64,000 bases of DNA from Halarcobacter sp. (GTDB lineage Bacteria > Campylobacterota > Campylobacteria > Campylobacterales > Arcobacteraceae): contig OY781089.1 of assembly GCA_963676565.1 (NCBI GenBank), forward strand, positions 3,200,001 through 3,264,000, in the 5' to 3' direction. Positions within the stretch are counted from its first letter, which is position 1. Each line of letters starts with the position of its first letter. The notes under the pieces were generated by a model. That model saw only the letters and a list, made by a program, of their open reading frames with translations. It did no database searches and had not been told where the DNA came from. Below, in pieces: positions 11,344 through 34,647 of the stretch. Position numbers and translations under genes: made by a program.

Positions 11344-12502
11344 AAAAACAGATGAAGAGATTATAGAGGAATTATCACTTGAAGCAAGTAATGATATTTC
11401 AGATGAAGCGGCTTTAGAAGAACTTACAATAAAAGATGACACAATAGACGACACTAATATTACCCCTAAATCTACTAATAAAACAAATGAGAAAGTAGAA
11501 ACAACAAATGAAAATGTAATTGAGAATGAAGATAAAGATGATGCTGAACTATCGTCAAAAAAAGAGGACTTAAATCCTGATGAAATTCCTGTCCAGAAAA
11601 AACAATCTAAACTACAAAAAATACTTATTGGTGTAGTTTCATTTTTAGTTTTAATTCTTATACTTGGTACTATTTTATATTTTACTGGTTTTTTTGATCC
11701 AGAGCCTATAAAAAAAGTTGAACAAGTTGTACAAAAGAAACCAGAACCTCAAATTGTTTTTGATGAAGATGAAATTAATAAAAAATCCCTTAATAAAAAA
11801 CTTACAAGATTAACAAAAACAGAAATAATGAATAAAGAAGAATTAGAAGCAGAAGAACAAAGAATAAAAGAAGAAGAAAGAAAGAAAAAAGAAGAAGAGC
11901 AAAAAGCTATCGAAGAAAAGAAAAAAGAAGAAGAGGCAAAATTAGCAGCACAATTTGCAAAAATAGAAGCAGAGAAACAAGCATTAAAAGAGCAACAAGA
12001 TAAAATAAAACAAGAACAAGAAAACTTCTTAAAACTTCAAGAGGAAGCTACAAAAGAGTTCGAAAAGAAAAAAAATGAATTATTAAGCAGTTTAGAAAAC
12101 AATTCAAACGATACTATGCAAAAGCAAGAGACAACTACTGAAGTAAATCAAAATGAGTCTATAAAAGAAGATCAAAATCAAGAAGAAGATTTATATTCAG
12201 AAGAAGCAATGAATAATCAAAAAATTGAAGAAACTAAAGAGATTAATACATTTTTATCATTTATAAATGTAGCAACAATAGAAGGAGAATTATACAAATC
12301 ATTTCTAGATAAAGTAACAAAAATAGATAATAATGTATCTTTATGTAGAGATAATAAAAATAGAGTTGAGATTTATTTTGGCCCATATTATTCAAATAAT
12401 GAAAGGGAAAAAGTCTTAAATAATTTATTAGAAAATGGTTTTAAATATTCATATTCAGTAGATTTCACTCAAGAAGAGTATAATAAAAGATGTAAGTATT
12501 AG
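11336..12502 (+). CDS. Bitopic membrane protein with charged coiled coil and probable C-terminal SPOR-like domain
   Basis: Acidic N-terminus, one TM helix (ILIGVVSFLVLILILGTILYF), long E/K helix, C-terminal VEIYFGPY...EREKVLNNL...GF pattern. Confidence 0.7.
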   Translation: MAEKTDEEIIEELSLEASNDISDEAALEELTIKDDTIDDTNITPKSTNKTNEKVETTNENVIENEDKDDAELSSKKEDLNPDEIPVQKKQSKLQKILIGVVSFLVLILILGTILYFTGFFDPEPIKKVEQVVQKKPEPQIVFDEDEINKKSLNKKLTRLTKTEIMNKEELEAEEQRIKEEERKKKEEEQKAIEEKKKEEEAKLAAQFAKIEAEKQALKEQQDKIKQEQENFLKLQEEATKEFEKKKNELLSSLENNSNDTMQKQETTTEVNQNESIKEDQNQEEDLYSEEAMNNQKIEETKEINTFLSFINVATIEGELYKSFLDKVTKIDNNVSLCRDNKNRVEIYFGPYYSNNEREKVLNNLLENGFKYSYSVDFTQEEYNKRCKY

Positions 12503-30311: not shown

Positions 30312-32159
30312 CTATTTAAATTCAATCATTTGAATTTGTTTCATTTCATTTTCCAAAACTCTTCCATATTTTTCAAGCTTTTTTTGTTGGCTTGAAATTC
30401 TTGAAACATATGGCTGATTTTCCCTCAAATCTTCACTTAAACTATTTATAGCTTCATTAGCTTCATCAAAGCTATCATAAACACCTTTAATTACTCTATA
30501 ATAACTATTTTGACTTCCTATTGGAAAAGCAAGAACCTCTTCATATAAGTTATTATATTCAAAAAACTTATCTACTCTCATATCATCTTTTAAAAATGTA
30601 ATTAATGTGATTGTATATTTTTTAGAATCTCTATTAAAGAATTCATCTTTTATTTTACTTTTACTATTTTCAAGCTTTGCATAAACACTTGAATAATCAA
30701 ACTCATACTTTTTAGTTTTAACTTGAGTATCATTTTTCTTACTATTATATATCATTTTATTTTTATGGTAAACTTTATATAGTTTTTGATGATTTTTTAT
30801 ATTACTAACTTTTAAATTTTTTAAACTTGTAACATTTAATTCTTCAATTGTCTTTTTTGCATCATCTTTAGTCTCAAACGCTCCATAAATAAGTCTTGCA
30901 TACTCTTTATTATCACCATATTTATATGCTAGTGCTTCGTTTTTAATTTTATTATTTATAAAAGATTGTTCAATTGTAGATTCTTTTAAATTTATTTCAC
31001 CAAAATCAATTGTAAAAAAAGAACTTCCATCATTTAAAAAAACTTCACTTAAAATATTAAACTCTCCATCCTCTTCAACATAAAAAACATCTACAAGTTT
31101 TGATTCTTTTAAAAATTTATTGTTGTTTTCTAATATTTTTGTTTTAGTTGTTTGTTTTTTTATTTTCTTTTTTATAGCTTTAGATTTTTTTTCTTCAACT
31201 TTTGGTTTTTCCTGTTTTACTTTAGCTATTTTTTCTTTTTTGGGTATTTCTTTTTTGGGTATATCTACGATTTTTATTTCATCACTTAATTTTACGTTTA
31301 CTTTTTTTTCTTCTTTTTTATCATTTATCTTTAATTCAACAATTGGATTATTTTCATCTTTAGAAATATTTTTCTTATAAAAACTTTGAAACTTTTCCAT
31401 TTTCATAGAATAAGGTTTATTACTTTTTAAATTATCATTAAACTCTTTAATTGCATTAATTGCTTCTGCTCTAGTTTTATACAAACCATATATAATTCTT
31501 GCTTTATCTTTATTTTTTCCATATAGGTGAGCTAAAGCTTCATCTCCTACGCCATAGGTTTGAAAGAATTTTTCAATACTACTTTGTTTTAAAGAAATAC
31601 TACCTAGTGCTATAGAATAAAATTGAGAATCATCATTTAAAAACTCTTCTTTTAGTTTTTTTGCTTCTTCTGAGTTATTAATAAAAATTGATTTAGAAGA
31701 TTTCTTAATAGGTTTTATTTCTTCTATCTTTTTTTTACTAGTAGTAGCCTTTTTAATATTTTCATTATATTCTGAAAAAAGTTCTTGATGTCTTTTTAAA
31801 TTCGCTGAGTAAGGTTTATTTCTAATTAATCTTGGATCCAAATCTTTTATTGCAGCAGTTGCTTCAGTACCAGTTTTATAAACACCTGAAATAATCCTAG
31901 CAAACTCTTTATTTTCACCAAATTTATAAGCTACAGCATTTGTCATATTAAAAGTTTTAAAATATTCTATTGGATCATATTTACTTAAATCTAAAGTGCA
32001 AATACTAATAGTATAAAACTTTGTATTAGGGTTTAAAAACTCATCCTTTAAACTTATTTGATTAGAAGTTTTATCCTCTACATATACAATGTCATCTTCC
32101 ATTGCAGCATTTAAATTTAGAAAAAGTAAAAAAGATAAAAAGATAATTTTATAAATCAA
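30312..32159 (-). CDS. Secreted protein with four DamX-like SPOR repeats
   Basis: Signal peptide, then four EF.N..S.[FY][YT][TS]I...ARIIYG.Y.T...A..AI...N.PY units. Confidence 0.75.
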   Translation of the reverse strand: MIYKIIFLSFLLFLNLNAAMEDDIVYVEDKTSNQISLKDEFLNPNTKFYTISICTLDLSKYDPIEYFKTFNMTNAVAYKFGENKEFARIISGVYKTGTEATAAIKDLDPRLIRNKPYSANLKRHQELFSEYNENIKKATTSKKKIEEIKPIKKSSKSIFINNSEEAKKLKEEFLNDDSQFYSIALGSISLKQSSIEKFFQTYGVGDEALAHLYGKNKDKARIIYGLYKTRAEAINAIKEFNDNLKSNKPYSMKMEKFQSFYKKNISKDENNPIVELKINDKKEEKKVNVKLSDEIKIVDIPKKEIPKKEKIAKVKQEKPKVEEKKSKAIKKKIKKQTTKTKILENNNKFLKESKLVDVFYVEEDGEFNILSEVFLNDGSSFFTIDFGEINLKESTIEQSFINNKIKNEALAYKYGDNKEYARLIYGAFETKDDAKKTIEELNVTSLKNLKVSNIKNHQKLYKVYHKNKMIYNSKKNDTQVKTKKYEFDYSSVYAKLENSKSKIKDEFFNRDSKKYTITLITFLKDDMRVDKFFEYNNLYEEVLAFPIGSQNSYYRVIKGVYDSFDEANEAINSLSEDLRENQPYVSRISSQQKKLEKYGRVLENEMKQIQMIEFK

Positions 32160-32259
32160 TACGCCCTACTTTTGTTGTTGATATAAGATAGATTTTAGCT
32201 AAATATAATTTAAACAAGAATTTAAAAGCTAATAGAGAGTAAGTAGTGGGAATTTAAAT

Positions 32260-32295
32260 AAAAAAAAGGGACATGCAAAATGCACACCCCTTTTT
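32260..32295 (-). terminator. Intrinsic terminator of the fusA transcript
   Basis: Minus-strand GGGGUGUGCA-UUU-UGCAUGUCCC (three G-U pairs) followed by U8. Confidence 0.8.
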
Positions 32296-32319
32296 ATCTA
32301 AAGAAAAGTTAATCTAATA

Positions 32320-32541
32320 CTATTAGTTCTGACATTTACCGTTTAATTACGAAATCATAGATTTCTATTAAACAAGGTAAATCTCGTTAATCACTAAAGA
32401 AGTGAAGAATTTCACTTCTTTTCTACGCTATTAGTTCAGACATTTGTCGTTTAATTACGAAATCATAGATTTCTATTAAACATGACAAATCTCGTTAATA
32501 GCTATAAAAGCCAAGCAGTTGGCTTTTATTTTACGCTATTA
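32320..32541 (-). repeat. Tandem 108-bp structured repeat (two copies plus 6 nt), candidate ncRNA or 3'UTR element
   Basis: Copies 32320-32427 and 32428-32535 align without gaps, 89/108 identical; 12 of the 19 differences form six compensatory pairs in two hairpins. Confidence 0.9.
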
Positions 32542-34647
32542 ACCATTTCTCTTTTTGATGATTTCGTCAGAAACGTTTTTAGGAACTTCCATGTATTGAT
32601 CAAATAACATAGAATAAGTTGCTCTACCTTGAGACATAGATCTTAAGTCTGTAGAATAACCGAACATTTCAGATAATGGAATTAATGCAGTAACTAATTT
32701 AACACCAGCTCTGTCATCCATTGATTGAACTTGTCCTCTTCTTTTGTTACAGTCACCAATTACATCTCCCATATATTCTTCAGGAGTTTCAATTTCAACT
32801 TTCATCATTGGCTCTAAGATTACAGCTTGCGCAGCTGCAGATCTACAACCTTGTTTGAATCCCATAGAAGCAGCTAATTTAAACGCCATTTCAGATGAGT
32901 CAACGTCGTGGTAAGAACCATCATAAAGTGTAACTTCAATATTAACCATTGGATATCCAGCTAAGATACCACCAGCCATTGCTTCTTCACAACCTTTTTG
33001 TACTGCAGGGATATATTCTTTTGGTACAACCCCACCTTTAATATCATTATTAAATTTGAAATTGTCTTCAGAATCTGCTGGAAGTGGATTGATTTTTAAG
33101 TATACATGACCATATTGACCTTTACCACCAGATTGTTTAGCATATTTGTACTCTTGATCAACAGCATTTTTAATAGTTTCTCTATATGCAACTTGTGGAG
33201 CACCAACTTCAGCTTCAACTTTAAATTCTCTTTTCATTCTATCTACAAGAATTTCAAGGTGTAACTCACCCATTCCTGAAATAATAGTTTGACCAGATTC
33301 TTCATCAGTATTTACTCTAAATGATGGATCTTCTTCAGCTAATTTACCTAATGCGATACCCATTTTCTCTTGGTCAGCTTTTGTTTTTGGCTCAACTGCA
33401 ACAGAGATAACTGGTTCTGGGAACTCCATTCTTTCTAAGATAACTGGATCTTTTTCAGATGCTAAAGTATCTCCTGTAATAGTTGTTTTAAGACCAACAA
33501 CTGCACCGATTTCACCAGCATATAACTCACTTACTTCTTCTCTATTGTTAGAGTGCATTTTAAGTAATCTACCGATTCTTTCTTTTTTCATTTTAGTTGA
33601 GTTCATTACATAAGTACCAGACTGTAATTGTCCTCTATAAACTCTTGTAAATGTTAATTGTCCAACAAATGGGTCAGTCATAATTTTGAATGCTAATGCA
33701 GCCACTTCACCTTCATCAGAAGAAGGAACAATAACAGCTTCACCATCTTGAGTTTCACCTCTAATATCAGCAACTTCTGTTGGAGCTGGTAAATACATTG
33801 CAACAGCATCAAGTAAAGTTTGAACACCTTTATTTTTAAATGCAGTACCACAAGTCATTGGAGTAATAGTCATAGCTAAAGTTGCAGCTTTTAATCCAGC
33901 AACAATCTCTTCTTCAGATAATTCACCCTCTTCAAAATATTTTTCCATTAATTCTTCAGAAGACTCAGCAGCAGCTTCAATCATTTTTTCTCTGTATTCT
34001 TCAGCTTGGTCTTGTAAATCAGCAGGAATATCTTCAACGTGGTAGTTAGAACCCATTGCAGCATCATCATCCCAAACGATAGCTTTCATTTGTACTAAAT
34101 CAACAATACCTTTGAAATCTTCTTCAGCACCAATTGGAATTTGAATTGGAACAGGATTAGCTTTTAATCTTTCCGCAACTTGTTTTTCAACCATAAAGAA
34201 ATCAGCACCAGTTCTGTCCATTTTGTTAACAAAAATCATTCTTGGTACTCTATACTTATTTGCTTGTCTCCAAACAGTTTCAGATTGTGGTTGAACCCCA
34301 CCAACTGAACAGAATACTGCTACAGCACCATCTAAAACCCTCATAGATCTTTCAACTTCAATTGTGAAGTCAACGTGACCTGGAGTGTCAATGATGTTAA
34401 TTTGCAGTTGCTCATTAGTTTTTGGGTGAGGCCAGTGACAAGTTGTCGCAGCAGAAGTAATTGTAATACCTCTTTCTTGCTCTTGCTCCATCCAGTCCAT
34501 TGTAGCAGCACCGTCGTGAACCTCACCAATTTTGTGAGATACACCAGTATAGAATAAAATTCTTTCAGTAGTTGTAGTTTTACCAGCATCGATGTGAGCA
34601 GCGATACCAATATTTCTAACTCTGTTAAGAGGGGTTTTTCTTGCCAT
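32539..34647 (-). CDS. fusA: Elongation factor G
   Basis: [23 protein letters not shown]; 702 aa. Confidence 0.99.

Follow-up and report, generated by a model that had tools for sequence, protein, structure and literature searches.

The 3' end of the gene for elongation factor G (fusA) in a Halarcobacter sp. genome is followed by two adjoining copies of a 108-nt sequence, and the question raised by this locus is what kind of element stands there twice and what maintains its fold. The array lies in a window of 64,000 nt, which is the whole stretch of DNA analysed. Tandem Repeats Finder described the array (32320-32541) as 2.1 copies with a period of 108, 83% matches, no indels and a score of 311, and direct base-by-base comparison of the two units (32320-32427 and 32428-32535) gave 89/108 identical positions and 19 differences, in agreement with the two gap-free copies of the original prediction. 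Twelve of the 19 differences form six compensated pairs, all still Watson-Crick and divided between the hairpins as had been predicted: two are located in hairpin B (32338/32378 and 32339/32377; four differences) and four in hairpin A (32397/32420, 32399/32418, 32403/32414 and 32404/32413; eight differences). The remaining seven fall in loops, a bulge, linkers and the segment designated S2. The CTATTA after the second unit is the start of a third copy and overlaps the fusA stop codon. The identity of the host gene rests on six Pfam EF-G/EF-Tu domains above cut-offs; rpsG and rpsL are found upstream, and a SPOR-domain gene and NAD kinase downstream. On the sense strand of the array no ORF of at least 40 aa was found, and a 41-aa antisense ORF (32482-32607, plus strand), which overlaps the array and the end of fusA, is probably spurious. 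Elsewhere in the window (11835-11941), overlapping tandem repeats rich in AAG/A, with periods of 3-36, form a cluster.

The order of parts in a unit on the fusA strand is S1, hairpin A, S2, CGAG and hairpin B, followed by G-UC-N-GA-AC and S3 (Table 1). Since S2 complements S1 and S3 repeats S1, S2 can pair either back with the gene end, closing a clamp around hairpin A, or forward with S3. The S2 of the distal unit matches the S1 version found in other species more closely than the S1 of its own locus (6/7 with one wobble).

Table 1. Parts of the array downstream of fusA, with positions in the window
Feature	Position	Strand	Basis
fusA (EF-G) ORF; stop codon TAA at 32539-32541	32539..34647	-	ORF list; Pfam GTP_EFTU, EFG_III, EFG_IV, EFG_C and others
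S1, 5' arm of clamp: last Gly codon bases, stop codon and 4 nt (GUUAAUAGC)	32535..32543	-	9/9 pairs with S2 in MFE fold
Hairpin A of fusA-proximal unit (GCCAA-type stem, 4-nt loop)	32505..32528	-	Folds; family helix covariation
S2, 3' arm of clamp, locus-specific complement of S1; can also pair with S3	32494..32502	-	Covariation
CGAG, 5' base of hairpin B	32491..32494	-	Near-invariant in alignments A1 and A2
Hairpin B of proximal unit: variable P2, 2-nt bulge, P2b, 1x3 internal loop, conserved tip P3	32442..32490	-	A2 helices
3' base of hairpin B (G-UC-N-GA-AC), including the G.G mismatch partner	32434..32441	-	Conserved in alignments
S3, direct repeat of S1; doubles as S1 of second unit	32427..32433	-	
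Hairpin A of distal unit (GUGAA-type stem)	32397..32420	-	Folds
S2 and CGAG of distal unit	32383..32394	-	
Hairpin B of distal unit	32334..32382	-	R1 model match, 95.4 bits; folds
3' base motif (GUCAGAAC) and final S1-like repeat of the array	32320..32333	-	
Intrinsic terminator closing the fusA transcription unit	32263..32295	-	15-pair stem and T run; 1 found vs 0.2 expected

Folding of the minus-strand RNA (296 nt) gave -91.6 kcal/mol, as against -50.8 +/- 4.5 kcal/mol for 200 shuffled sequences (z = -9.2), none of which was as good. The alternative pairings of UAAUAGC with GCUAUUA segments, put forward in the original prediction as a source of alternative folds, are present. A terminator scan of 32100-32700 flagged a single site on the minus strand (32295-32263), so that the array indeed stands between the fusA stop codon and an intrinsic terminator, and neither hairpin A was flagged. 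Judging from sequence, the array is probably co-transcribed with fusA. In two sets of metatranscriptome contigs only the fusA ORF of relatives was covered, save for one low-depth contig reaching a single-unit variant, and two raw RNA runs yielded 0 reads. Related copies sit inside operons, between sufB and sufC and between groES and groEL, and as the element is tolerated there it is not a strong terminator.

Comparison with known RNA families agreed with the first impression that the element was unfamiliar. A cmscan of 31900-32900 against Rfam 15 at E<=10 produced five chance-level matches and none at the gathering threshold; the best of these, L20_leader (19.8 bits vs a threshold of 58.7), covers the terminator only. 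Literature searches, whose scope stopped short of the drawings of the 'ffRNA' and 'HRC' motifs that might bear on the P3 tip (PMC6429828), found no description of the element. Intergenic regions of Arcobacter sp. L were analysed by Stav et al. (2019), and Table S1 of that study has no motif flanked by fusA, fabI or thiC (PMC6429828).

The units of the array are members of an undescribed family of small structured elements, nearly all of which begin at a housekeeping gene's stop codon. They occur in Arcobacteraceae and in some sister families within the order, and measure approximately 85-110 nt, with a longer form of up to approximately 190 nt. By BLAST, relatives were detected in 25 of 61 related genomes, 13 loci being placed directly after fusA. 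A covariance model of hairpin B (R1), built from 18 sequences, matched 37 of 151 genomes of the same family, each of them having one or two loci; 10 of 22 genera are represented. A second model (R2), describing the clamp half, i.e. the 5' half of the element, matched 98 of the 151 genomes, many of these matches being partial and consisting of hairpin A alone. In an order-wide sample, R2 matches at E<=1e-6 were obtained in 26/151 genomes and were concentrated in three families (8/10, 10/10 and 2/10).

All 34 R1 loci follow the stop codon of a long ORF, which is fusA in 19 cases, fabI in eight, thiC in six and sufB in one, and each locus starts 16-28 nt past the stop, or further where extra units or inserts intervene. 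Among 40 further full-length R2 matches, there are 33 in which the clamp contains the stop codon of an ORF of 80 aa or more, two sit 17-18 nt after nusG and five have no clear placement. NCBIfam models named 15 of the 17 hosts tested (ThiC, FabI, SufB, HypD, S7, NusG, AcnB, EF-P, HemE, GlyQ, GroES, NuoH, DctM, SucC and FabG), so that with fusA included 16 host genes are named by NCBIfam or Pfam; groEL and the MoaD/ThiS-like and KH-like hosts were named by eye from their C-terminal sequences. Every placed copy is sense to its host gene, and none of the copies with placed context lies in free intergenic DNA. Full copies are few, with 2-3 loci per genome. In the Halarcobacter genome itself, BLAST with the array found only the array, a strict descriptor scan found two loci (fusA and fabI), and R2 found three (fusA, fabI and a groEL variant). 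As this module is also found after the stop codons of many genes besides fusA, including fabI and groEL in this very genome, the element is not specific to fusA, and the original prediction needs correcting on this point.

The two further copies in the genome differ in their preservation. The one at fabI (G000:C1:995779-995910; loci L092/L095) has the same clamp and the CGAG ... GUCUGA base with an unrelated hairpin-B tip. The copy at groEL (G000:C1:1284060-1284200) is degenerate: its clamp lies just past the stop codon, the CGAG motif has an extra C, and GUCCGA follows a different hairpin and is itself followed by a hairpin-A-like terminator.

What the members share was examined in alignments of the two halves. 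At 34/34 R1 loci, whichever the gene, S2 (positioned just 5' of CGAG) complements the last 9-12 bases of the host ORF and/or the stop codon. In alignment A3, consisting of 27 clamp 5' halves (26 distinct sequences), clamp and hairpin A together were 99.2% paired and 17/19 pairs had changed on both sides; taken separately, S1:S2 was 100% paired in the 26 distinct sequences (8/9 pairs changed on both sides) and hairpin A was 98.4% paired (9/10 pairs). The covariation score of A3 was 0.643, as against 0.177 for shuffled alignments (reached in 0/500) and at most 0.097 when the partners were slid. Alignment A2 (45 aligned R1 matches), whose figures lean towards structure because it was fitted to the model and its sequences are related, had 87.9% of cells paired vs 70.5% when shuffled, 25/28 pairs changed on both sides, and a covariation score of 0.398 vs 0.133 for shuffled alignments (0/500 reaching the observed value) and 0.05-0.08 with the partners slid. 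The helices of hairpin B were 84.8%, 96.7% and 99.2% paired in A2, and the S2:S3 helix 72.4%, with 7/7 of its pairs changed on both sides. Given the slid controls and the many double changes, we consider the A2 helices convincing, and the earlier proposal that selection keeps the fold is upheld by both alignments.

Individual loci display the same behaviour. The protein end encoded by hypD is the same in two families, while its S1 differs at synonymous sites and S2 compensates. At two glyQ loci the clamp as a whole is built from the ORF end and an inverted copy of it, and the stop codon lies in the loop. Hairpin B has a conserved base (C-GAG ... G/C-UC-N-G), in which a G.G 1x1 mismatch is present at 28/34 loci, and in two copies from other families or distant genomes the GAG of the CGAG motif is replaced by GGG, matched by a change of CUC to CCC. 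The latter supports plain Watson-Crick pairing and is at odds with a kink-turn or L7Ae-binding site at this position; by eye, approximately 7/40 sequences lack the second G.A, and no PF01248 protein was found in the Halarcobacter genome.

The kinds of mismatch tolerated bear on the strand under selection. Of the pairs in the MFE helices of the 34 loci, 1415 are Watson-Crick and 49 are G.U, next to a single A.C 1x1 mismatch; the resulting 49:1 ratio of G.U to A.C is inflated because A.C at helix ends cannot be counted by this method. In 40 of the 45 A2 rows (five partial or weak ones being dropped), G.U/U.G pairs outnumbered A.C/C.A by 43 to 13. A DNA cruciform would favour neither strand, and the excess of G.U therefore points to selection on the sense RNA as what keeps the fold.

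The six compensated pairs of the array do not testify to divergence after a local duplication. Another species has a single unit, to which the distal unit (32320-32427) is 96% identical across 97 nt, and the GCCAA-type variant of hairpin A in the proximal unit occurs in this genome only there and at the fabI copy. Since the distal unit matches another species and the proximal one shares the fabI variant, the two units are different variants of the family standing side by side. At least four stem variants of hairpin A exist across the family, hairpin B may end in any of several tips or lack one, and 7/34 R1 loci have two or more units.

Several departures from the standard unit were observed in other genomes. 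After thiC there are truncated 76-nt units, which retain the hairpin-B tip and the 3' part and have no hairpin A, repeated at least three times up to the contig ends (L037/L055 on G021:C120, and G021:C222); the fact that the repeats reach the contig ends suggests longer arrays that break assemblies. The long form (approximately 190 nt; L303, L304, L305, L310, L314, L316, L318, L320, L324, L326 and L299) has two extra conserved hairpins and conserved linkers. Its hosts in these genomes are efp, acnB, glyQ, groES (in the groES-groEL gap) and a small gene that is KH-like by eye, and the long-form loci of relatives had no Rfam match. Hairpins resembling hairpin A also occur alone in arrays with a spacing of approximately 80-130 nt (G165:C1:1203575-1203855, G167:C1:691986-692183 and G036:C1:39141-39420), and in one genus such lone hairpins are found at up to 24 places per genome.

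The P3 tip of hairpin B was also searched for outside the family. A pattern scan of 185,579 species genomes returned many matches outside Campylobacterales, some of which are probably due to chance, as its 18 fixed bases are expected to recur in 596 Gb. Others are real: they belong to a Clostridial RNA with the same tip. In Clostridia and Bacteroidales the tip caps other stem-loops, which are related to one another and have other covarying stems; the tip-bearing loci are L144, L185, L170, L152 and L178 (Clostridia), L143, L162 and L164 (in one Lachnospiraceae MAG), and L134, L182 and L168. Three of the Clostridia/Bacteroidales stem-loops adjoin tRNA genes. No Rfam family covers the Clostridial look-alikes, and BLAST of the Clostridial RNA against phages and plasmids returned one 33-nt and one 32-nt match, both without annotation. 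The scan revealed no binding partner of the tip.

How the element came to stand at gene ends is best seen at fabI. Alignment of a filled site (genome G003) with an empty one (G009) revealed an 88-nt block, downstream of which the native ORF end and stop codon are kept; an exact direct repeat of 6 nt flanks the block, whose S2 complements bases native to the host. At other loci, flanking repeats of 6-13 nt were read by eye. The element is absent from 26/30 fabI loci of the family, and the protein tail is the same. Empty fusA sites with the same ORF end occur in five genomes of the same genus, and at the empty fusA sites of relatives a small hairpin is already located over the stop codon. Comparison of filled and empty sites shows that the element was inserted at the very end of the host gene, in the same sense as that gene.

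Two further observations concern the surroundings of such sites. A conserved block of approximately 110 nt lies 3' of fabI in many genomes of the family that have no element there, and in G003 it comes after the inserted element (L099, L096, L098, L100-L103, L109, L110, L114, L118-L120 and others); at the three loci tested, it had no Rfam match at gathering thresholds. At L330 (G039:C1:1884623-1884689 and flanks), a copy stands after a diverged duplicate of the start of the peroxiredoxin-like gene that lies downstream; the duplicate is approximately 60 nt long, includes the ribosome-binding site and the first 20 or so codons, and amounts to an unusually long flanking direct repeat.

Small insertions of this general type are known from other bacteria. 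ERIC/IRU elements of enterobacteria and Correia/NEMIS elements of Neisseria are small, ORF-less, co-transcribed insertions that form long RNA hairpins, lie between short direct repeats and reportedly change how mRNA is processed and how stable it is; they have fixed terminal inverted repeats, a fixed TA duplication and copy numbers in the tens to hundreds, and show no link to stop codons. The present element resembles them as a small non-coding insertion with RNA hairpins and short direct-repeat flanks, to which co-transcription might be added, and the target-site duplication expected of such MITEs was found at fabI. It differs from them in having 2-3 loci per genome, a repeat of variable length, an internal segment matching the host and a fixed position at the stop codon. 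No terminal inverted repeats with an unchanging sequence were found, the S2 and S1/S3 segments following the host sequence instead, and the two ends of the element itself, judged by eye in the alignment of filled and empty fabI sites, do not form an inverted pair.

A REP/BIME-like repeat family, another suggestion of the original prediction, comes closest in spirit because of the insertion signature and fails in the particulars. REPs are approximately 35-40 nt long, occur hundreds of times in a genome and are associated with RAYT (Y1) transposases; as hairpins in 3' UTRs, often in tandem, they shield mRNA from 3' exonucleases. The array shares the 3' UTR hairpins and the tandem arrangement, but with three loci in the Halarcobacter genome the copy number is far too low, and no Y1 transposase was found there. 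PF01797 (Y1, RAYT/IS200-type transposase) was absent from this genome and from G165, and present in three of the five carriers examined; G165 has 24 R2 matches. Among the same five carriers, PF01548 (IS110 recombinase) was absent from the Halarcobacter genome, G165 and G173, and reverse transcriptase from two, so that none of the three mobility enzyme families occurs in all five.

Other known classes were set aside. A riboswitch does not fit an element that is always 3' of a gene, has varying genes downstream and possesses an exchangeable tip domain. Hammerhead, hairpin and HDV-like ribozymes were considered by eye only, and neither an Rfam match nor a conserved core was seen. Integron attC sites, dif/Xer sites and single-strand origins were dropped as the repeats vary with the host, and an IS110 bridge-RNA element was rejected given the absence of PF01548 from the genome.

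The best explanation as a whole, which we put somewhat short of an even chance, is an insertion-derived, cis-acting module acting on mRNA stability or processing at the 3' end or between cistrons, a function that is proposed here. The element would be transcribed with the host mRNA, and the clamp of S1:S2 around hairpin A would provide a stable structure that halts 3'-to-5' decay just past the stop codon. Each terminating ribosome would have to open the clamp, and S2, once released, could pair with the downstream S3 and close hairpin B; tandem copies might arise by slippage between the S1/S3 direct repeats. This reading leaves unexplained the conserved base of hairpin B with its G.G mismatch, the near-invariant P3 tip and the origin of S2 complementarity to a new host, and the small number of carrier genes per genome is odd for a generally useful stabiliser. 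It should be noted that the ribosome-driven refolding step is weakly supported, S2:S3 being only 72% paired in A2 and missing at the fabI copy of the Halarcobacter genome.

The same segments might instead serve a translation-coupled riboregulator or attenuator, in which a ribosome at the stop codon would select between S1:S2 and S2:S3 and thereby set read-through, cleavage or translation of the next cistron; we regard this as unlikely. The three-segment architecture is present in the window, S1:S2 and S2:S3 both covary, and at two loci the ribosome-binding site of the next gene comes directly after S3. The underlying logic of 1:2 and 2:3 helices is known from leader-peptide attenuators, and in these, as in terminators that overlap stop codons, a translated segment joins mutually exclusive helices. 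In contrast, the translated segment here is the end of a full-length housekeeping gene, and no consistent regulated gene lies downstream. S3 is largely what would be expected of a direct repeat of S1 without selection and is degenerate at the fabI copy of the Halarcobacter genome; moreover, the downstream genes vary by locus, an ordinary terminator follows many copies and no regulated output has been identified.

Rather improbable, in our view, is a palindromic DNA insertion of MITE type, selfish or neutral, that would have no function as RNA. Its perfect S1:S2 arms would be generated and maintained by intrastrand template switching (quasi-palindrome correction) nucleated by hairpin A, and its tandems would come from slippage. 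The fabI insertion with its direct repeat, the reshuffling of hairpin-A variants and hairpin-B tips between loci, the variable number of units (two or more at 7/34 loci) with arrays at contig ends, and the copy flanked by a duplicated gene start of approximately 60 nt (L330) would all suit such an origin. The strand asymmetry of the mismatches (49 G.U vs 1 A.C; 43 vs 13) would be unexpected for a cruciform, though, and the copies at hypD, fabI and fusA are orthologous and have lasted, with compensated stems, across genera and families. Nor would this reading account for the sense orientation of all placed copies and the absence of any with placed context from free intergenic DNA, and no single one of the three mobility enzyme families is common to the five carriers. 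Of similarly low probability is a new small mobile element that would home to gene ends (Gly codon and stop) with S2 as its internal guide, S2 being complementary to the target from the outset or coming to be so. It would leave target, complement-bearing element and target in succession, and the RNA fold would be active in insertion or as a switch opened by the terminating ribosome.

Still less probable is a role in trans, in which RNAs of approximately 108 nt would be cut from the fusA 3' UTR, or the P3 tip and internal loop would form a platform for a protein, the two copies providing bivalency. Its appeal lies in the tip, which is conserved in sequence across genera while the flanking stems covary, and which recurs on other covarying stems in the Clostridia and Bacteroidales records; yet the tip is dispensable, as many members have unrelated tips or none, promoters are not enriched (4 found vs 3.3 expected), no L7Ae-type protein was found in the Halarcobacter genome, and RNA ends were not seen in the transcriptome data.

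The least probable reading, which we consider very doubtful, is a guide-bearing mobile RNA or small ribozyme, whose S2 would be an internal guide choosing the site of insertion or cleavage and which would leave behind the target, the element with the target's complement, and the target again: S2 does complement the native host sequence at the insertion point, that sequence is repeated after the element, the S1 types of different hosts are interrelated and centred on a Gly codon and stop, and the fold is selected on the RNA strand, but there is no Rfam ribozyme or intron match and, a few bases aside, no unpaired core that is conserved, reverse transcriptase is missing in 2/5 carriers and the IS110-type recombinase in 3/5, the Halarcobacter genome included, and in-place compensatory drift of S1 and S2 explains much of the match. 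Group I and II introns and IS110 bridge RNAs likewise use internal guide pairing, and the element resembles them in having a segment complementary to the flanking target; it differs in the absence of an intron or ribozyme core and, in the Halarcobacter genome, of an IS110 recombinase, and in the duplication of the target, which introns do not duplicate.

If the reading as an insertion-derived stability or processing module is true, Arcobacter-like bacteria and some of their relatives possess an unannotated family of structured RNAs welded to the stop codons of core genes, among them those for translation factors, ribosomal protein S7, NusG, chaperonins and enzymes of fatty-acid, thiamine and Fe-S metabolism. 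The last codon and stop codon of some host genes are provided by the element or replaced by it, which is of consequence for annotation. Arcobacter-like bacteria are not known to possess RNase E or Hfq, and the family would be a test case for how 3'-end structure shapes the fate of mRNA without them. It would likewise be a test case for the remodelling of downstream RNA by a terminating ribosome, and for the way in which a short element may gain a segment complementary to its host.
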